Below, piece after piece: positions 7,944 through 52,547 of a stretch of DNA of 64,000 bases. The first letter of the stretch is position 1, and the number at the start of each line of letters is the position of its first letter. Source of the stretch: Actinomycetes bacterium. Its GTDB lineage: Bacteria; Actinomycetota; Actinomycetes; JAHEKZ01. The notes under the pieces were generated by a model. That model did not search any database, was not told the DNA's origin, and worked only from the letters and a program-made list of their open reading frames with translations. The stretch covers positions 3,596-67,595 of the forward strand of contig JAJAYZ010000015.1 in assembly GCA_027118455.1 (NCBI GenBank), given 5' to 3'. The position numbers were made by a program, and so were the translations under genes.

Positions 7944-8659
7944 TAGCGCCTCAGGTCCTGCGGTGTCGTAATGACGCCGGTGCGCGTGGTGGTGCCAGGT
8001 CCGAGCAGGCCGAAGTAGAGGGCGCCATTCGCCTGACCGTTGATGATCCGCTGAGCCTGATTCTGGTCGGTCTCAAGAGTCAGGATCGTCTGCGGAATCT
8101 CCTCGGTAGTCGACCCGCCCGTCTGGTCGGTCGTCACCTGCGTGCTCAGAGTGGTGGCACCGGTGGCGAGCACCTCGACCTTCGGAATGATGACCATGGT
8201 GTCGGTGTTATCGGTCCAGAAGATGGTGACGTCCGAGCCCGGTGCCACGAAGCCCGCGACTCGTTCGGGGTCGCCGAGCTGGACCGACATCGCCAACTTG
8301 TCCTTGGGAACGCTAAGGCCCGACGCGGCGGCTCCCGGTGGCCCGAACATCTGCGCCAAGATCTGTTGCCCCGGGAAGATCGGGGCCAACGCCACCTGGT
8401 CGGAGATGATCGTGATGTCGGACAGCACGCCTTGTGGAGCGGCCGAGGCAGGCACCGTCTGGATCTCGAAGGCACCGTCGTTCGACGCGTCAGTTGCGTT
8501 GGTGCCCGCGGCGACCTGTTGCGTCGCGACCAGCACGTCGACTGGCGCAGCGTCAGCCTGCGCTCGGTCGTCGGCGTTCGTGACGTACACGAAGATGAGC
8601 ACCGTGCCGAGCGCGGCAACCACCAGAGCGGCAATGAGCAAAAGTGTTCTACGTCCCAT
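7943..8659 (-). CDS. cpaB: Flp pilus assembly protein CpaB/RcpC
   Basis: N-terminal TM, SAF-like VLVATQQVAAGT, VAGFVAPGSDV; start moved to ATG at 8659 (MGRRTLL). Confidence 0.9.
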   Translation of the reverse strand: MGRRTLLLIAALVVAALGTVLIFVYVTNADDRAQADAAPVDVLVATQQVAAGTNATDASNDGAFEIQTVPASAAPQGVLSDITIISDQVALAPIFPGQQILAQMFGPPGAAASGLSVPKDKLAMSVQLGDPERVAGFVAPGSDVTIFWTDNTDTMVIIPKVEVLATGATTLSTQVTTDQTGGSTTEEIPQTILTLETDQNQAQRIINGQANGALYFGLLGPGTTTRTGVITTPQDLRR

Positions 8660-45577: not shown

Positions 45578-46314
45578 CACGTCACCTGGAGCGGCGCACC
45601 GTCGATGGTTCCATCGATGGCCAAGACGCTGAAGCGAGCGAACAGCTCTTCGGCGAACCACCCGGTTTCGCGGGTGGACGTGATGGCCTGTTGGTGGCAT
45701 GGGCTCTCGTAGGCAAACCGCCGAAGCGCGTCGGCATCGCGCCAGACGCTGAAGGTTCCCTGGAGCCCGATCGGGGCCTCGCCGATCCCTTTGGACCAGA
45801 TCAGTCCATCGGCAGCGGACAGCTCTGCTGCGACGCCAGGTACCGAGCGCCAGAAGGAGCGCAGCTGGCTGGGTTGGATCCGAGCTCGGGTGATCGAGGC
45901 GATCGGCCCGGCGGCGGCTGGGGCTGATGCCGGGGGAGCCGTGGGTCCGAACGGCTGCCGCTTCGACCAGTGGCCCATGCTCGAGAGGGGTCGCATGGTG
46001 ATGCGGAGACGCTCGGTGGCAGCGGCGTCCCATCGTTGGACGACGCTGGAGCGTTCGAAGGTGGTGGCTGCGTGGGGGGTGTCCCAGCAGGTGAGCAGGG
46101 CCCAGTGGTGCGGGTCGGCGTCCTGAGGGGCGAAGGTCTGCCCGCTGCCTGAGCCCAGGAGCTTGGCGAAGGTGAGCCCGGGGTACCCGCGTAGTCGGAA
46201 GCGGTCGACGGCCAGCCGCCCCACGGCCGAGGCGATGCCGGCCCTGGGGATGGTCCACACGTGCAGGCCGACCACTGCAGGGGTCGGCTCGGCTGCGGTG
46301 TGGGGTGTGGACAT
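45577..46314 (-). CDS. crtA: CrtA-like (spheroidene monooxygenase family) protein
   Basis: FAKLLGSGSG, GHWS, SITRARI, GIGEAP..QGTFSVW, WFAEELFARF. Confidence 0.8.
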   Translation of the reverse strand: MSTPHTAAEPTPAVVGLHVWTIPRAGIASAVGRLAVDRFRLRGYPGLTFAKLLGSGSGQTFAPQDADPHHWALLTCWDTPHAATTFERSSVVQRWDAAATERLRITMRPLSSMGHWSKRQPFGPTAPPASAPAAAGPIASITRARIQPSQLRSFWRSVPGVAAELSAADGLIWSKGIGEAPIGLQGTFSVWRDADALRRFAYESPCHQQAITSTRETGWFAEELFARFSVLAIDGTIDGAPLQVT

Positions 46315-46345
46315 GGGTTGACCTTAGAGCGCCGAAACGAGGGGG

Positions 46346-46374
46346 TTGACCTCGGACGTGGGGAGGGGTTTACT
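46346..46374 (+). promoter_or_regulatory. Putative housekeeping-sigma promoter of the SOS cassette
   Basis: TTGACC-17 nt-TTTACT. Confidence 0.5.
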
Positions 46375-46383
46375 AGAGCGTAT

Positions 46384-46399
46384 TCGAACACATGTTCGA
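46384..46399. promoter_or_regulatory. LexA (SOS) box
   Basis: TCGAAC-ACAT-GTTCGA, exact match to the actinobacterial consensus TCGAAC-N4-GTTCGA, upstream of dnaE2/dinB. Confidence 0.92.
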
Positions 46400-46506
46400 A
46401 CCCCAGCCGGTCGGGTGAGGCGCTGACCTCGACCCTCACCGCCTCACCCGACCGGTAGCCCCAACGGTTCCTCGCTGGGGCTACTCGACCCGCAGGAGGC
46501 AGCACT

Positions 46507-46842
46507 ATGCGCCGGATCGACGAGTCCATTGAGTCGTTGACCCCCGTTGCGAGCGGTGGGACGGCACCGCTGGCCTTCCGGTGGCGTGGCCGACGCTATG
46601 TCGTCGGAGCGGTGTTGGCGCACTGGGTCGAGACGGGTGCGTGGTGGCGCCGCACAGCGCCGCGCCCCACCTCCGGCTCCGGTGAGCTGCCCGACCCCGA
46701 GCGGTGGCTCTGGCGGGTCGAGGCATGCCGCGGGGCACAGACCGGAGTCTTCGACCTTTGCCTCGAGGTTGACGACAGCTCCGACGACAACCCCCGAGAT
46801 CGAGGCCTAGCGCGCTGGTCCTTGCACGCGATCTACGACTGA
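46507..46842 (+). CDS. DUF6504 family protein (ImuB C-terminal-like domain)
   Basis: PLAFRWRGRRY.V..V..HW....WW, WRVEA, GVFDL, WSLHAIYD; AGGAGG RBS. Confidence 0.8.
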   Translation: MRRIDESIESLTPVASGGTAPLAFRWRGRRYVVGAVLAHWVETGAWWRRTAPRPTSGSGELPDPERWLWRVEACRGAQTGVFDLCLEVDDSSDDNPRDRGLARWSLHAIYD

Positions 46843-46889
46843 CCTGCCCGACTGACCGGCCCGACCGACTGCACGAAGGGATGCCCCCT

Positions 46890-47366
46890 ATGTCCACCGA
46901 CATGTCCATCGACCACGCCCTGGCCCCAGCCCCCGCGCGCACCACCAGCTCGCGCGTCACCAGATCACCCCGTGGCTCGTCGGCCGGAGTCCTCGACCTG
47001 CTTGCTGCCGCGCACCGAGGTCTCACCGCGGCGGTGCTCGAGCCGCGGGCCGGCCGCCGCTACGCCGTCGCCCACTTGGCGGCGCTGCGGGCTGCCGCTG
47101 CCGTGCTGGCCACCCGTGCTCGTCCGACCGGACGCCGTGGCCCGCGCAGCGCCTGGGACCTACTCGGCCAGGCGGCCCCCGAGCTCGCCGAGTGGGCTGC
47201 CTTCTTCGCCGCCGGTGCCGGCAAGCGGGCGGCGGCCGAAGCTGGCCTGGATGCGGTCACGCCTCGGGAGGCCGACGACCTGCTCCGTGACGTTGAGACG
47301 TTCCTCGCGCTGGCCGAGACCACCATCGGTGTTCCGCACCAGACCTCGCTGCCCCGTGTCAGCTGA
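46890..47366 (+). CDS. SAV_6107 family HEPN-domain protein
   Basis: RYAVAHLAALRAAAAVLA, SAWDLL..APELAEWAAFFAAGAGKRAAAEAG, READDLLRD. Confidence 0.8.
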   Translation: MSTDMSIDHALAPAPARTTSSRVTRSPRGSSAGVLDLLAAAHRGLTAAVLEPRAGRRYAVAHLAALRAAAAVLATRARPTGRRGPRSAWDLLGQAAPELAEWAAFFAAGAGKRAAAEAGLDAVTPREADDLLRDVETFLALAETTIGVPHQTSLPRVS

Positions 47367-47415
47367 GGACTTCAGTGTCAGCTGATCGCCCGCGTCCTGT
47401 TCGGGTCTGCTCTCG

Positions 47416-50400
47416 GTGACCGGCTCTTCTTCTTTTCCGCACCTGCACGTCGCCTCCGGCTGGTCGCTGCGCCACGGCGCATCCAGCCCAGAGACGCTCG
47501 TCTCTGTTGCGGCTGATCGCGGCCTCTCGGTGCTCGGGCTGACCGACCGCGACGGGGTGCGTGGCGCTGTACGGTTCGCCCGCGCCACCCTCGCCGCTGG
47601 GATCGCTCCGGTCTTCGGCACCGATCTTGCCCTCGCGCCACCCCAGACTCCTGGTCGCGCTCCCGAGCGGGCCCGGCGTACCCCGGTTCGAGGAGGCCGT
47701 ACTCGCGATCCCCGACTGCCCAGGATCACGGTGCTGGCGCGCGGCCCCCATGGCTGGGCGGCGCTCTGCCGCCTGGTCTCTGCCGCCCATGCCCAGGCTG
47801 AGGCAGCCGGACGCCGGGGGCACCCGACGGTCGACGCCGACCTGGTCGCTCACTACGCGGCCGAAGGTGCCCTGGTGGTGCTGCTCGGCCCCGACTCCGA
47901 CGTCGGCCAGATGTTGGCGAGGCGCCGCCCCGACCTCGCGACGCGCGCGTGGCAGGGGTGGCGAGAGCGCGTCCCGGCGCTGTGGTGCGAAGTGGTCAAC
48001 CATCGAGGCGCTGGCCCGCTCGGTCGCTCGGCGCCGTTCGCCGGGCGGATGCTCGGCTGGGCGCACGAGCAGCAAGCAGACGTCGTACTCACCAACGCGG
48101 TGCGCTACGCCCGTCGCGAGGACGCCCCGGTCGCCGACGTGCTTGACGCCGCACGCCAGTTGGTTCCCCTTGACCTGCGCCACATCGATCGCCGCACCGG
48201 CGAGGGCTACCTGAAGTCATCAGCGCAGATGGCCGAGATCGCCGCTGAGGTCGCTCGCCTCTCTGGCGTCGGCACCGAGCGCTCCACCAGCCGCGCGTTG
48301 CTCGCCGCCACTGAACGACTCGCGCAGCAGTGCGTCCTGTCCCCGGTAGCCGATCTCGGTCTCGGCTCAGTGCACTTTCCCGAGCTCGAGGTGGTCGACC
48401 CGGCAGCCGCCGCTGCGGGACGTGCACCGGACGCCGTGCTGCGTGAGCGGTGCGCGGCCCGTTGGTCGGCCCGCGAGCTGCCGACCGGCGGGCCAGCCGG
48501 ACGCGAGGCGCGCGAGCGTCTTGAGCACGAGCTCGGCATCATCGCCAGCCTTGGCTACGCCACCTACTTCCTCACCGTCGCCGACGTCGTCGACCTGATC
48601 CGCTCGATGCAGATAAGGGTTGCGGCACGTGGCTCGGGTGCTGGGTCGCTGGTTACCTACCTGCTCGGCATCTCAGGGGTCGATCCGGTTCGGCACGACC
48701 TTCTCTTTGAACGCTTCCTCTCCCCGCTTCGTCAGGCGCTACCCGACATCGACATCGACGTCGAGTCAGCGCGGCGCCTCGAGATCTACACCCGAATCTT
48801 CGAGCGCTTCGGCACTGCTCGCGTCGCCTGTGTCTCCATGGCCGACACCTACCGCGTCCGACACGCAATTCGTGATGTTGGTGCGGCGCTCGGTCTGCCG
48901 CCCTCTGAGATCGACACGGTGGCCAAGGCGTTCCCGCACATCCGCGCCAAGGACGCACAGAACGCCTTGCGTGAGCTGCCAGAGCTGCGGGCCAGCCGGA
49001 TCGCCGACGACCCGCGGATGACGTTGCTCTTCTCGCTCGTCGAGCGTCTCGACGGCCTGCCGCGTCACCTTGCACTCCACCCGTGTGGCGTTCTGCTCTC
49101 CGACGCCACACTGCTCGACCGCACACCGGTCGAGCAGAGTGCCATGGGTTTTGCCATGAGCCAGTTCGACAAGGACGACGTCGAGCACCTCGGCCTGCTC
49201 AAGCTCGATGTGCTCGGCATCCGCATGCAGTCGGCGATGGCGTACGCCCTTGACGAGATCGAGCGAGTCGACGGCCCGCAGCAGCGCCCTGACCTCGACA
49301 CCGTGCCGTTCGATGATCTGGCGACCTTCGACCTCATCCGCTCCACGCACACCCTTGGGTGCTTTCAGATCGAGTCACCCGGGCAGCGTGAGCTGGTCGG
49401 CAAGTTCGCCCCCGAGACCTTCGACGACCTCATCATCGACATCTCGCTCTTCCGTCCTGGCCCGGTGAAGTCCGACATGGTCCGGCCTTTCCTGCATGCA
49501 CGACATGGCTGGGCTGAGCCGCAGTACTTGCATCCTGACCTCGAGCCGGTGCTGCGCCCCACCTACGGCGTCGTCGTCTTCCACGAACAGGTCATCGACA
49601 TGCTGCACGTCATCACCGGGTGCTCCCGCGCCGAAGGTGACGAGAAGCGGAGGGCTCTCGGTGATCCCGATGGCCAGGCCGAGACGCGCGAGTGGTTCTA
49701 CCGGTGTGCCCGAATGAGGGGGTACGACCTGCCAACGATCGAACGCATCTGGGACGTCCTGCGCGCGTTCGCCTCTTTCGGGTTCTGCAAGGCACACGCT
49801 GCAGCCTTCGCGCTACCGACCTACCAGTCGGCGTGGCTCAAGACACATCACACCGCTGGTTTCCTCGCAGGCGTCCTCACCCACGATCCCGGTATGTACC
49901 CGAAGCGGCTGATCCTCAACGACGCGCGACAGTTCGGCGTCACCGTTCTGGCACTCGATGTCAACGCCTCCCAGCACGGTTACCGGGTTGAACGGGTCGA
50001 GGTGCCCGACTCCGCAGATGCCCCAGCACCGCCGCCTCGCACGCTTCCCGTTGCCGACTCCGCGATGAGCAGGGCACGTGGCGTGCTCGACCATCCGGCT
50101 CTTCCAGACGCCACTGGGTACGGCATTCGCATCGCACTCGCCGAGGTCAAGGGCATCAGTGACGCCGAGGTCGACCAGATCGTGGCCGGACAACCGTTTC
50201 GCTCGCTCACCGACTTCTGGCACCGGGCCGGAGTCTCGCGTCCGGTCGTCGAACGGCTGGTGCTCGCCGGAGCATTTGACGCGCTGCACGGCATCGACCT
50301 CACCCTTCCAACCGCGTCGGCGCGGCGCCGGATCACTCGCCGAGACCTGCTGCTGCAAGTGGCTGAGCTCGACCGCTGGACGGCGATGCCCACGTCACGT

Positions 50401-51198
50401 CGAGGCAAGTCTGGTGCTCGGCCTTCAGGAGCGGCCGGGCTCGACACCCAGCTCTCCTTCCCGCTCGGCCCCAGCGACGAGCAGGTGGCCCCCTCCGGTC
50501 TGCCGGAGATGACCGGTGCCGAGCAGGTCAGGGCCGAGCTCGACGTCCTCGGTCTCGATGCCAGCCGACATGTCGTCGACTTCTACACCCCGTTGCTGCG
50601 TGCACTCGATGTCGTACGCTCCCGCGATCTGCTCACCTGTCGTTCCCGCAGTGAGATCTTGGTCGCCGGTGTCAAGGTGGCTACTCAGACACCACCGATC
50701 CGTTCCGGCCGGCGGGTCGTCTTCGTCACCCTCGATGACGCCACCGGCCCGGTCGATGCGACCTTCTTCGAAGATGCCCAAGGTCCCTACGCCACGACGC
50801 TCTTCCACTCGTGGCTCCTGCTCATCAGAGGTGAGGTGCGCCGGACCGGTCCCAGGGGTGTCTCGCTGCGTGCCGCGGGGTGCTGGGAGCTTTCTGGCCT
50901 GTACGACCTGTGGCAGCGCCGTGGCACGGCCGCCGTCTACGAGGTACTCGACACTCCTCCTCTGCTCAGCCCCTTGGGCACTGGCGCAGAGGACGTGCAG
51001 GCTCCAGCTGGTCCAGCCCGTGAGGAGTCAGACTCAGGGGGCACTGCAGGGGGAATGGGGCGGCGGCGCGTCCTGGTCCACCCCAGTGGCTTCCGCCAGT
51101 CGCCGTACGCCGACGTGCGTCCAGCAGGTGATGACGTGAACCGGGGGGTGCCGCCGCGCAAACTCTGGCACTCCAGCCCTGGGAGCTCAGGTGGCTGA
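47416..51198 (+). CDS. dnaE2: DNA polymerase III alpha subunit, error-prone DnaE2 type
   Basis: Degenerate PHP (TDRDG), RGSGAGS, PDIDID, FQIESPGQ, FGFCKAHA, OB fold; SOS box upstream. Confidence 0.9.
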   Translation: MTGSSSFPHLHVASGWSLRHGASSPETLVSVAADRGLSVLGLTDRDGVRGAVRFARATLAAGIAPVFGTDLALAPPQTPGRAPERARRTPVRGGRTRDPRLPRITVLARGPHGWAALCRLVSAAHAQAEAAGRRGHPTVDADLVAHYAAEGALVVLLGPDSDVGQMLARRRPDLATRAWQGWRERVPALWCEVVNHRGAGPLGRSAPFAGRMLGWAHEQQADVVLTNAVRYARREDAPVADVLDAARQLVPLDLRHIDRRTGEGYLKSSAQMAEIAAEVARLSGVGTERSTSRALLAATERLAQQCVLSPVADLGLGSVHFPELEVVDPAAAAAGRAPDAVLRERCAARWSARELPTGGPAGREARERLEHELGIIASLGYATYFLTVADVVDLIRSMQIRVAARGSGAGSLVTYLLGISGVDPVRHDLLFERFLSPLRQALPDIDIDVESARRLEIYTRIFERFGTARVACVSMADTYRVRHAIRDVGAALGLPPSEIDTVAKAFPHIRAKDAQNALRELPELRASRIADDPRMTLLFSLVERLDGLPRHLALHPCGVLLSDATLLDRTPVEQSAMGFAMSQFDKDDVEHLGLLKLDVLGIRMQSAMAYALDEIERVDGPQQRPDLDTVPFDDLATFDLIRSTHTLGCFQIESPGQRELVGKFAPETFDDLIIDISLFRPGPVKSDMVRPFLHARHGWAEPQYLHPDLEPVLRPTYGVVVFHEQVIDMLHVITGCSRAEGDEKRRALGDPDGQAETREWFYRCARMRGYDLPTIERIWDVLRAFASFGFCKAHAAAFALPTYQSAWLKTHHTAGFLAGVLTHDPGMYPKRLILNDARQFGVTVLALDVNASQHGYRVERVEVPDSADAPAPPPRTLPVADSAMSRARGVLDHPALPDATGYGIRIALAEVKGISDAEVDQIVAGQPFRSLTDFWHRAGVSRPVVERLVLAGAFDALHGIDLTLPTASARRRITRRDLLLQVAELDRWTAMPTSRRGKSGARPSGAAGLDTQLSFPLGPSDEQVAPSGLPEMTGAEQVRAELDVLGLDASRHVVDFYTPLLRALDVVRSRDLLTCRSRSEILVAGVKVATQTPPIRSGRRVVFVTLDDATGPVDATFFEDAQGPYATTLFHSWLLLIRGEVRRTGPRGVSLRAAGCWELSGLYDLWQRRGTAAVYEVLDTPPLLSPLGTGAEDVQAPAGPAREESDSGGTAGGMGRRRVLVHPSGFRQSPYADVRPAGDDVNRGVPPRKLWHSSPGSSGG

Positions 51199-51228
51199 GA
51201 GGATGCCCTGGTGAACCCTGAGCGGTAT

Positions 51229-51284
51229 TCGGTATTACGGTATTGGGCTGAGGCGATCGCCCCAGCCCAATACCGTAATACCGA
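51229..51284. repeat. 56-bp near-perfect palindrome between dnaE2 and dinB
   Basis: tcggtattacggtattgggctg-a-ggcga|tcgcc-c-cagcccaataccgtaataccga; 27/28 pairs, no loop. Confidence 0.85.
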
Positions 51285-51299
51285 GTGGGACGGGTCGCG

Positions 51300-52547
51300 A
51301 TGAGCAGGCAGCAGCTCGGTCGCGGCCAGGCCGGACGTGTCGAGCCCCCGGGTCGGTCAACTGTTGCCGACGACACCGGCTGCGAGGTCCTCCATGTCGA
51401 CATGGACGCGTTCTACGCCTCGGTCGAGCTCCTCCGCCATCCCGAGCTCGTCGGTACCCCTGTTGTCGTCGCCGGTGGAGGCACCAGGGGCGTCGTCCTG
51501 TCGGCCACTTACGAAGCCAGGGCGCTCGGCGTCCACTCAGCGATGCCAACGTCACGTGCCAGCCGGCTCTGTCCGAGCGCTACCTTCCTCGCCCCCCACC
51601 ATGAGGACTACGCCCGCATCTCATCGGGTGTCATGGCGATCTTCGGATCGATCACACCTGCAGTCGAGCCGCTCAGTCTCGATGAGGCCTTCCTTGACGT
51701 CCGTGGTGCCACCCGTAGGCTCGGTTCACCAGCGGAGATCGGTGAGCTGATCCGCACCAAGGTCCAGGACGAGCAAGGAATCACCTGCTCGGTCGGAGTG
51801 GCCTCCACCAAGTTCGTCGCCAAACTCGCTTCGGGGCTGTGCAAACCCGATGGTCTTCTCGTCGTCCCCGCCGACCACATCATCGACTTCCTCCACCCGC
51901 TCCAGATCGGGGCGCTGTGGGGAGTGGGCGACAAGACCGAAGAGGCCCTGCACCGCCTCGGCCTGCGCACGGTCGCAGATCTTGCGAACACCCCTGTCCG
52001 AACCCTCGAACGCGCCATCGGCCCTGCCGCCGGCCGCCATCTGTGGGAGCTGGCGTGGGGACGTGATGAGCGCATCGTCGTCGCCGATACGCAGGAGAAG
52101 AGCCTGAGCAGAGACCGCACGTTCGAGACCGACGTCGACGATGTGGAGGTGGTCTACCGCGAGTTACTCGCGCTGTCGCAGACGGTGGCTCAGCAACTGC
52201 GCAGCCGCGAACTGGCCGGCCGGACCATTGCGCTCAGGGTGCGGTTCGCTGACTTCACGACGATCACTCGCTCGCGCACTCTGGCCCATCCGACCGATGT
52301 CGCCCGCGACATCTACGCAACAGCCGTTGCTCTCTTTGATGCCTTGGGCCTCGATCGCGCCCGGCTGCGCCTGGTTGGCGTCCGGGTCGAGGGGCTGGTC
52401 GACGGGTCGGCCGTGGCTCACCAGCTCACCTTCGATGAGCGGCCGGAGGCCTGGCGCGAGGCCGAGCGGGCCGCCGACCGGGCCGCCGACCGGTTTGGCC
52501 GCGGGGTGGTCCGACCGGCGAGCCTGGTCGACTCGCCTGATCCGTAA
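51300..52547 (+). CDS. dinB: DNA polymerase IV
   Basis: LHVDMDAFYASVE, SLDEAFLD, AKLAS..CKPDG, clamp motif QLTF. Confidence 0.93.
   Translation: MSRQQLGRGQAGRVEPPGRSTVADDTGCEVLHVDMDAFYASVELLRHPELVGTPVVVAGGGTRGVVLSATYEARALGVHSAMPTSRASRLCPSATFLAPHHEDYARISSGVMAIFGSITPAVEPLSLDEAFLDVRGATRRLGSPAEIGELIRTKVQDEQGITCSVGVASTKFVAKLASGLCKPDGLLVVPADHIIDFLHPLQIGALWGVGDKTEEALHRLGLRTVADLANTPVRTLERAIGPAAGRHLWELAWGRDERIVVADTQEKSLSRDRTFETDVDDVEVVYRELLALSQTVAQQLRSRELAGRTIALRVRFADFTTITRSRTLAHPTDVARDIYATAVALFDALGLDRARLRLVGVRVEGLVDGSAVAHQLTFDERPEAWREAERAADRAADRFGRGVVRPASLVDSPDP

Follow-up and report, generated by a model that had tools for sequence, protein, structure and literature searches.

A 64,000-nucleotide (nt) stretch of an Actinomycetes bacterium (contig JAJAYZ010000015.1 of assembly GCA_027118455.1), called the window herein, carries a LexA box followed by genes for two DNA polymerases, a DnaE2-like enzyme and DinB, and raises the question of how an SOS-linked polymerase pair of this kind is equipped and controlled where the classical partners ImuA and ImuB are not to be found. 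A sequence-only reading of the window had proposed an alternative mutasome with two active polymerases. Our analysis supports that interpretation as correct and finds that it is not new: the proposal matches the published computational class DnaE2B-[ImuB-C]-PolY-RecA (Timinskas & Venclovas, Nucleic Acids Research 2026, PMC12926913), to which the cassette belongs. Compared with the published descriptions of the class that were searched, the locus has two conserved extra operon parts, a gene for a HEPN-fold protein and a hairpin in the leader. We consider it highly probable that the locus is one LexA-repressed operon encoding the actinobacterial ImuA/ImuB-less DnaE2B-[ImuB-C]-PolY-RecA mutasome, together with a HEPN protein and a structured leader hairpin. 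The box and the four genes lie in the window as follows.

46384-46399, strand not assigned: LexA (SOS) box, TCGAACACATGTTCGA, the sole exact TCGAAC-N4-GTTCGA of the 64-kb window
46507-46842, + strand: standalone ImuB-C (DUF6504) protein, 111 amino acids (aa); PF20114, 62.1 bits (cut-off 24.2), E 6.3e-17
46881-47366, + strand: HEPN_SAV_6107 protein, 161 aa from the first ATG; PF18726, 114.5 bits (cut-off 27.2), E 3.5e-33
47416-51198, + strand: DnaE2-like C-family polymerase, 1260 aa; PHP, DNA_pol3_alpha, finger, HHH_6 and OB domains
51285-52547, + strand: DinB-type Y-family polymerase, 420 aa from GTG; IMS, IMS_HHH and IMS_C domains, NF003015

The arrangement first described for this DNA, a perfect LexA box ahead of four co-oriented genes, was confirmed: four open reading frames (ORFs) on the + strand follow the only exact box of the window, with intergenic gaps of 38, 49 and 86 nt. 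Boxes with at most one mismatch number three in the window versus 0.20 expected, a count reached in none of 100 shuffles. Five perfect boxes were found in the whole assembly, one of them ~300 nt from a lexA match, and recA is preceded there by a near-perfect (one-off) box. Since copies stand near lexA and before recA, we take TCGAAC-N4-GTTCGA to be the SOS operator of this organism. A pattern scan of one genome per species yielded at least 562 HEPN-encoding stretches among at least 599 candidates; our locus counts are drawn from the best 80 of these at least 562 loci and lean towards close relatives of the query. Within this set, upstream sequence of 700 nt or more is available for 74 related loci, and 68 of them have a CGAAC-N4-GTTCG no more than 1 kb upstream of HEPN. 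No RNA run was listed for 46300-48300; the DNA of the locus itself is present in four sequencing runs of one study.

The first gene, whose ATG is preceded at 7 nt by an AGGAGG ribosome-binding site, had been read as a free ImuB-C-like domain, and both the PF20114 match on a separate 111-aa ORF and the structural model agree with this. The AlphaFold2 (AF2) model is all-beta with six strands (mean predicted local distance difference test score, pLDDT, of 78.9), consistent with the beta-barrel described for ImuB-C in PMC12926913, and residues W26, W40, W46, W47, R70 and W104 are invariant in 49 orthologues. The last gene encodes a DinB that scores 374.7 bits against the DNA polymerase IV model NF003015 (cut-off 367); its likelier start is the ATG at 51300, where relatives begin. 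The intact catalytic motifs and the QLTF clamp motif previously ascribed to this protein were both borne out among 54 aligned orthologues. Of the 53 sequences with a residue at these positions, all have D39, D41 and D133 and 52 have E134, and at the QLTF site Q380 is found in all 54, L381 in 51 and either L or F at position 383 in 53. The claim of a RecA-N-terminus-like tail fared less evenly. The tail is conserved, with the consensus ..A.D....RFG.G.VRPA.L in the same 54 orthologues and a RFGxGxVRPAxL core in which F404, V409 and L414 are each kept in 53 and G405 in all 54, and by eye it resembles the RQFGKGSVMRLG stretch of the organism's own RecA N-terminus, but the likeness to RecA was not significant.

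The third gene encodes the C-family polymerase. It scores 636.5 bits against the "error-prone DNA polymerase" model NF004225, below the cut-off of 939, and 629.3 bits against the DnaE1 model NF004226, below the cut-off of 1002; with NF004225, the canonical DnaE2A of the same-class genome G019 reaches 1440.7 bits, and its identity to the polymerase of the window is 31%. The palm motifs PD[IVL]D.D and K.D.LG are present in all 39 full-length orthologues. In 31 of these 39 the PHP motif reads TDR and in none TDH, the form shown in a DnaE1 row of the PMC12926913 supplement. We regard the enzyme as a probable divergent DnaE2 of the type called DnaE2B in the literature, an assignment that fits by scores; by its context it would work like a DnaE2, and by the NF004225 model it is a non-member. 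Judged by the palm motifs of DnaE (39 of 39) and the catalytic residues of DinB (52-53 of 53), both polymerases look active. The DnaE also has a conserved tail (window 51040-51198, residues ~1210-1260) made up of VLVH.SGF..SPYAD..P.G, a variable stretch and KLWHSSPGSSG. LWH[SAR]S[PQ]G is found in this tail in 35 of the 39 full-length orthologues, and neither in the DnaE2A of G019 nor in the second DnaE of the genome G021.

The sequence-only reading had also held that imuA and imuB are missing, and neither was found by profiles or by tblastn in an assembly that is 94.59% complete and consists of 100 contigs. PF00817 (which is this dinB), PF20114, RecA and the C-family polymerase each gave a single match in it. 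With the ImuA' model NF058630 the genome returned only RecA, at 25.7 bits and below the cut-off of 65, and with the ImuA model NF033429 again only RecA, at 40.6 bits and below the cut-off of 150; a tblastn search of the genome with the ImuA' and ImuB of G019 as queries matched only this DinB. G019 served as the positive control, as it holds a row of imuA' (162.6 bits on NF058630), imuB (PF00817, 41.8 bits) and dnaE2A. Among 31 relatives, every DUF6504 match lay within an open frame of at most 285 aa.

With no ImuA or ImuB found, a separate ImuB-C and an intact Y-family active site, the locus has the make-up of the DnaE2B-[ImuB-C]-PolY-RecA module. DnaE2B is the term used in PMC12926913 for the polymerases of genomes without ImuA or ImuB. 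The ImuA/ImuB-less module was described in that paper and by the same authors in 2019 (Nucleic Acids Research, PMC6511836), and solo ImuB-C had already been linked to DinB and DnaE2 operons by Aravind et al. in 2013 (PMC3765255). According to PMC12926913, where Tessaracoccus lapidicaptus is the representative, the DnaE2-[ImuB-C]-PolY-RecA combination is found only in Actinobacteria and without ImuA or ImuB, and AlphaFold models dock ImuB-C on the PHP domain of the polymerase.

Comparison with neighbouring systems sharpens the assignment. The canonical ImuA'-ImuB-DnaE2 mutasome (mycobacterial type, as in G019) likewise has an SOS-linked C-family error-prone polymerase, and its Y-family-fold partner carries the clamp motif and the RecA-N-terminus (RecA-NT) motif together with an ImuB-C domain. 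In the window, by contrast, the Y-family protein retains catalytic residues, ImuB-C is a separate 111-aa protein and no ImuA' was found, and the polymerase is set apart from the DnaE2A of G019 by its score on NF004225 (636.5 versus 1440.7 bits), by an identity of only 31% and by the extra C-terminal tail LWHSSPGSS. The Geobacter sulfurreducens operon lexA-imuB-C-polY (PMC6511836) shares a standalone ImuB-C and an active Y-family polymerase under SOS control; by its description in that paper it has no DnaE2 and no HEPN gene, and it belongs to a different phylum. The Streptomyces DnaE2-DinB2 pair (DnaE2B-iPolY-RecA, PMC12926913) is also an actinobacterial DnaE2B without ImuA or ImuB, but it has an inactive Y-family partner and lacks ImuB-C, unlike the cassette studied here. 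In the Streptomyces loci L033 and L081, HEPN is accompanied by a methyltransferase only, with no SOS box, ImuB-C, DnaE or DinB nearby.

Conservation of the cassette had been named as a check on the original proposal, and it came out in its favour: ImuB-C, DnaE, DinB and the SOS box are kept round HEPN in most related loci. ImuB-C lies directly upstream of HEPN in 59 of 74 evaluable loci (60 with L052, which was dropped by the distance filter), DnaE directly downstream in 55 of 79, and DinB downstream in 56 of 71, with DnaE and DinB both downstream in 47 of those 71. L052 was considered as an ImuB-C-HEPN fusion and rejected, as a stop codon separates the two genes. Of the 31 relatives, 28 have HEPN and 28 have DUF6504. 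A wider class sample of evenly drawn genomes (n = 151, each at least 90% complete) contains HEPN in 125 genomes, DUF6504 in 89 and both in 76; HEPN adjoins DUF6504 in 70 of the 76, and two of the six exceptions lie at contig ends. The tallies take in the unpublished genomes G024, G039, G044 and G050, on which no claim is based alone.

In 50 of the 71 loci that could be evaluated (for example L023:13652-14410; seen in loci L019-L096), a gene for a ~250-aa class-I S-adenosylmethionine (SAM)-methyltransferase lies between dnaE2B and dinB or, if dnaE is absent, right behind HEPN, and it follows HEPN even in the two Streptomyces loci. The window does not contain it, and the assembly yielded no orthologue (best match 39% identity over 120 residues, contig C10); this organism's cassette is a variant that lacks the methyltransferase gene found in most relatives.

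The second gene of the operon had been predicted to encode a HEPN-fold protein, and the PF18726 match and the structural ranking both uphold this. Judged by a GAAGGG ribosome-binding site and the N-termini of relatives, its likelier start is the ATG at 46890. When the AF2 model (pLDDT 82.5) was compared with known structures by VIA-align, the top entry was 2hsb, with Z 15.1 and a root-mean-square deviation of 2.4 A over 117 residues; the sacsin HEPN domain followed at Z 12.8, and 26 of the 28 top entries bear HEPN-family names. Foldseek returned nothing for the model at E 0.001, its best entry being again 2hsb at E 0.12. The residues invariant in 49 orthologues include H65, W92, R116, R129, E130, D133 and R136. 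The canonical HEPN RNase motif is Rx4-6H, at a position taken from PMC3710099. In that place (residues ~113-125 by the model) R116 is invariant and no H occurs within the next 4-6 residues, so that a catalytic RNase motif was not found where it is canonical. This agrees with the table of PMC3710099, in which the SAV_6107 family has Rx4-6H not conserved and no gene context; the AF_0298-type HEPN protein (2hsb) and the SAV_6107 family share the four-helix fold with the protein studied here, and AF0298-like proteins are described in that paper as keeping the motif R and having lost the motif H, as is the case here. What differs from that account is the setting, which here is an SOS operon with ImuB-C, DnaE2B and DinB. 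Helix 2 contains an R60-x4-H65, off the canonical place, in which R60 is nearly invariant and H65 invariant across the 49 sequences, and this may form an alternative catalytic site; an alternative histidine has been suggested for the AF0298-like family (PMC3710099).

The word HEPN does not occur in the main text of PMC12926913 or PMC6511836, nor is HEPN mentioned in that part of the PMC12926913 supplement which leaves out the DnaE2B rows. Within the literature searched, which was mostly without subscription journals, no paper pairs HEPN with DnaE2, none names DUF6504, and SAV_6107 is named only by the HEPN survey PMC3710099. The HEPN gene is thus a regular member of this operon that is unreported in the literature searched.

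The other extra part lies between the SOS box and the first gene, downstream of a promoter-like pair.

46346-46376, + strand: putative promoter, TTGACC (46346-46351), a 19-nt spacer and TACTAG (46371-46376), read by eye and ending 7 nt before the SOS box
about 46407-46456, + strand: leader hairpin, arms 46407-46426 and 46436-46455, 7 nt after the LexA box
46427-46435, + strand: apical loop of this hairpin, CCUCGACCC, in the covariance-model register

Of 70 box-bearing leaders, 53 have a pair of the form TTG[AC][CG]-N16-21-TAnnn[T/G] whose end lies 4-14 nt ahead of the box. A scan of the locus with an E. coli-type promoter consensus returned no promoter, and an E. coli-type terminator scan returned a single terminator-like site, inside dinB and at chance level. 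As the -35/-10-like pair ends just before the box, we infer that the hairpin lies in the 5' untranslated region of the transcript.

The arms of the hairpin are 20 nt long and 95% complementary. A folding energy of -59.4 kcal/mol (z = -5.2) was computed for the leader RNA, and none of 200 shuffles folds as well. In the leaders of relatives a hairpin stands at the same place with a different stem sequence and the same loop, the motif [A/C]CUCGACCC being invariant. We assembled a gapless, loop-anchored alignment of 51 distinct instances, located 35-111 nt after the SOS box and chosen for a TCGACC core and at least nine flanking pairs. Loop positions 23-29 (UCGACCC) are invariant in the 51, six of them by selection and C29 not, and C22 is found in 49. 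Each of the 18 stem pairs shows changes on both sides. Cells changed in this way number 279, versus 102 +/- 7.5 when shuffled, with 0 of 500 shuffles reaching 279, and the covariation score of 0.768 falls to 0.239 on shuffling and to 0.222 or less when the partner is slid. The variety of stems among the 51 instances is not inflated by the selection rule. G-U pairs outnumber A-C by 90 to 35 in 918 stem cells, a selection-biased figure that we did not use as a strand test. Given the invariant loop and the covarying stem, the hairpin appears to be a structured cis-element of the transcript.

Genome-wide specificity is a stronger argument for the hairpin than covariation. Of the 2096 CTCGACC sites in the organism's genome, 55 are flanked by a stem of 8 bp or more, and only two of these stems are longer than 11 bp, namely the leader, with 20, and one other, with 18. 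A covariance model of the hairpin, R1, gave one match in the same genome, at the leader, with 48.6 bits. Run against 150 class genomes, R1 matched 21 at a genome-wide E of at most 0.01, with one match in each, and all of these matches lie 23-191 nt upstream of DUF6504 (17 genomes) or of HEPN (four genomes without a DUF6504 match). A search of 1.31 Mb of loci with R1 yielded 43 matches; every one is on the operon strand, and 42 lie in leaders. Rfam 15 gave 14 matches on the leader hairpin, all below threshold, the best being a microRNA model at 22.1 bits (threshold 83), and no Rfam match at gathering score was obtained in L019, L049 and L063. The leader element is not mentioned in the available portion of PMC12926913, and no paper in the literature searched joins ImuB with an RNA motif.

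Two sites outside the leaders deserve a record. The other long-stem CTCGACC site of the genome lies on the minus strand of contig C37 (G000:C37, near reverse-complement position 8052) and has a stem of 18 pairs, of which several are G-U; it was not among the R1 matches at E up to 1. The 43rd R1 match in the loci (L070:1110-1172, Nocardioides marmoriginsengisoli; 31.1 bits, E 0.025) is a weaker hairpin of the same kind after a second SOS box, 7.9 kb upstream of the HEPN locus, where it overlaps a DUF222-HNH endonuclease gene at its start.

Further structure was seen downstream of the leader hairpin.

46455-46484, + strand: candidate second, smaller hairpin, with 12-nt arms that are 92% complementary

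After this second hairpin, CUCGACCC recurs, unpaired, at 46484-46491, 3 nt before the AGGAGG of imuB-C. The second hairpin is kept in the closest relative, L017, and not generally; the unpaired copy is kept in L017, in part in L018, and not generally. In 17 of 70 leaders (L019, L022, L024, L026, L040, L045, L047, L049, L059, L061, L063, L065, L067, L073, L074, L077 and L078) the first hairpin is followed by a second one with GGGGAAGC in or near its loop, an arrangement that is not present in the window. A GCUUCCCC that matches GGGGAAGC lies further downstream, so that long-range or pseudoknot pairing is possible.

Taken together as one operon, these parts suggest the following course of events. 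On DNA damage, RecA-stimulated cleavage of LexA would free the promoter that abuts the box. The transcript would begin at or near the box with a 5' leader that contains the long GC-rich hairpin, and this one transcript would encode ImuB-C, HEPN, DnaE2B and DinB. If the published AlphaFold models (PMC12926913) apply here, the beta-barrel ImuB-C would dock on the PHP domain of the DnaE2-type polymerase; DinB would supply a motif for the beta-clamp and, at its C-terminus, one for binding RecA, and the only RecA of the cell would replace ImuA. The hairpin may act as a second, post-initiation lock on the mutagenic operon, through attenuation, mRNA stability or translation, as a GC-rich stem of 18-20 bp just downstream of the transcription start could stall or terminate transcription, shield the 5' end or govern how the first gene is translated.

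A number of points weigh against this account. Protein-protein binding and expression as an operon are both things that we infer from sequence. For the DinB tail, blastp-short against the organism's own RecA N-terminus gave no match, and its RecA-NT label therefore rests on published profile work. Likewise, the profile built from 49 ImuB-C proteins was not significantly similar to the ImuB of G019 by hhalign (E 0.3 over the full length and 0.18 for the last 160 residues, the latter run aligning the W-rich stretch that had been matched by eye), so that the ImuB-C label rests on Pfam and the literature; PF20114 gave no match on the same ImuB either, which makes a search by DUF6504 alone a poor test for ImuB in this class. 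As the assembly is 94.6% complete, imuA' and imuB are to be called not found and not proven absent. The percentage of paired positions in the hairpin alignment and its G-U excess are partly the result of the selection rule, and the sensitivity of R1 at genome scale is low (21 of 150 genomes). The association of the parts also has exceptions. In the class sample, 49 of the 125 HEPN-positive genomes have no DUF6504 match, and in five of the 80 loci (three Herbidospora and two Streptomyces) HEPN was detected without SOS box, ImuB-C, DnaE or DinB. In G020 and G027 dnaE directly adjoins ImuB-C and no HEPN intervenes. A canonical mutasome is found in G019 (locus L101, G019:C13:399000-413000). Elsewhere, that genome carries an SOS-box HEPN-DinB locus without a detectable ImuB-C (L011, on its C2), and since both loci are present in it, HEPN coexists with the classical mutasome.

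What HEPN and the hairpin do within the operon is the point on which alternatives to the lock have to be weighed. HEPN may instead be a structural, non-catalytic polymerase subunit, for instance an ImuA-like adaptor at the ImuB-C/PHP interface, and the hairpin a generic stabiliser of the 5' end of the mRNA; we rate this as possible yet doubtful. The HEPN gene sits between imuB-C and dnaE, and in many loci, L034, L065, L077, L069 and L094 among them, its stop codon meets or overlaps the start of dnaE. The retention of R116 without a following H, in a family whose motif is given as not conserved in PMC3710099, would suit a non-catalytic role as well. Among 19 matches to longer HEPN proteins, only P0012 (824 aa) and P0017 (412 aa) add a polymerase domain, joining HEPN to DNA_pol3_alpha or PHP, which would also suit a subunit; both are singletons that may be rare fusions, or frameshift or gene-calling artefacts at the HEPN/dnaE junction, and we do not count them as evidence. 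The idea of a subunit has to contend with 11 of the 80 loci, in which there is no dnaE and HEPN is followed by the methyltransferase and DinB, and with the 49 of 125 genomes that have HEPN and no DUF6504 match. For its part, a generic stabiliser would not need the invariant 7-9 nt loop. A predicted complex of three chains (ImuB-C, DnaE residues 1-345 and HEPN, from alignments of 48-49 rows) scored 0.00 in both runs, with a mark of 0.32 and without controls, and weighs neither way.

It is less likely that HEPN is an independent SOS gene, such as a damage-induced RNase or growth-arrest factor, which has its promoter and an old order of genes in common with the polymerases but does not work with them. 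Such a gene could well be single-copy and more widely distributed than ImuB-C, as HEPN is (125 versus 89 of 151 genomes), and could keep its SOS box without them, as is seen in 11 of 80 loci where ImuB-C and DnaE were not detected and in six of seven HEPN-only loci. An RNase function might be served by R60-x4-H65 in helix 2, given the alternative histidine suggested for the AF0298-like family. Yet HEPN lies inside the operon in 70 of the 76 genomes that have both it and ImuB-C, R-x4-H is off the canonical place, and no antitoxin-like gene was found beside HEPN in its neighbourhood.

The lock that we favour would be more specific if HEPN itself were its reader. The invariant loop argues for recognition by a factor, possibly a protein, and HEPN is the obvious candidate since it has an RNA-binding/RNase fold and is encoded in the same operon. 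That HEPN_SAV_6107 binds or cuts the invariant CUCGACCC loop of its own leader, the two forming a regulatory pair, is a conjecture to which we give a small chance. The hairpin was present at HEPN without a detectable ImuB-C in three of seven HEPN-only loci (G043, G054 and G130), the R1 matches of this kind being in genomes G054, G096, G098 and G130. It was found in none of 15 ImuB-C loci without an adjacent HEPN, seven of which have an SOS box, five of those seven belonging to one genus. This contrast, in which the hairpin tracks HEPN, is suggestive; as it is confounded by kinship, we base no claim on it.

Instead of an RNA structure, the hairpin might be an element of the DNA, either a palindrome to which a protein binds or a dispersed repeat. 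At 7 nt after the LexA box, a role of the DNA near the promoter is conceivable, but we judge this to be very unlikely. The stem sequence varies from locus to locus with the pairing kept and both sides changing at all 18 pairs, which is unlike a protein-binding palindrome, and all 43 matches have the loop on the operon strand. A dispersed repeat, in turn, is hard to reconcile with a single R1 match in the genome and only two long CTCGACC stems.

The dnaE of the window also has to be set against the other C-family polymerase genes of these organisms. The assembly has a single PF07733 match and no DnaE1 above the cut-off. Two C-family polymerase genes were found in 28 of 30 relatives, and in genomes of the same genus or family the higher-scoring copy, which is DnaE1-like (~340 bits), is 35-40 kb away from the dnaE linked to HEPN. 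From this spacing, dnaE1 would be expected near 87-92 kb of contig C15, past the contig end at 79,500, and its absence is best explained by an assembly gap. That this dnaE is the replicative DnaE of the cell, as the lone PF07733 match would have it, and not a translesion enzyme, we reject as having next to no chance, in view of the second gene in 28 of 30 relatives, an expected dnaE1 position beyond the contig end, the SOS box that the gene carries and a PHP motif that reads TDR and not TDH. A DnaE2B-like polymerase (615 bits on NF004225) was also seen in G021, a genome with no HEPN or DUF6504 match (L100, G021:C1:511000-526000), with a gene for an SOS response associated peptidase (SRAP) 1.8 kb upstream of it.

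The genes that flank the operon bear no relation to it. Both flanks are on the opposite strand, with a DUF4126 protein, a carotenoid-synthesis protein and a glycosyltransferase encoded upstream and a TgpA-type transglutaminase downstream.

Taken alone, the window is ordinary, one more member of its class from an uncultured freshwater-type actinobacterium. What is new here are two overlooked conserved parts, the HEPN gene and the leader hairpin, both of which are directly testable. ImuA/ImuB-less actinobacterial mutasomes are known from computation alone, and a reconstitution or deletion study designed by the published parts list (DnaE2B, ImuB-C, PolY and RecA) would omit the HEPN gene and the leader element. 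If the hairpin gates expression, it would add a second layer of control to stress-induced mutagenesis and bear on how the cost of error-prone synthesis is limited. If the pairing of HEPN with the hairpin is true, a post-transcriptional gate would stand behind LexA on a two-polymerase mutasome across Actinomycetes, mutagenic synthesis would need more than SOS induction, and the leader would represent a new class of cis-regulatory RNA that gives the SAV_6107 family its first function.

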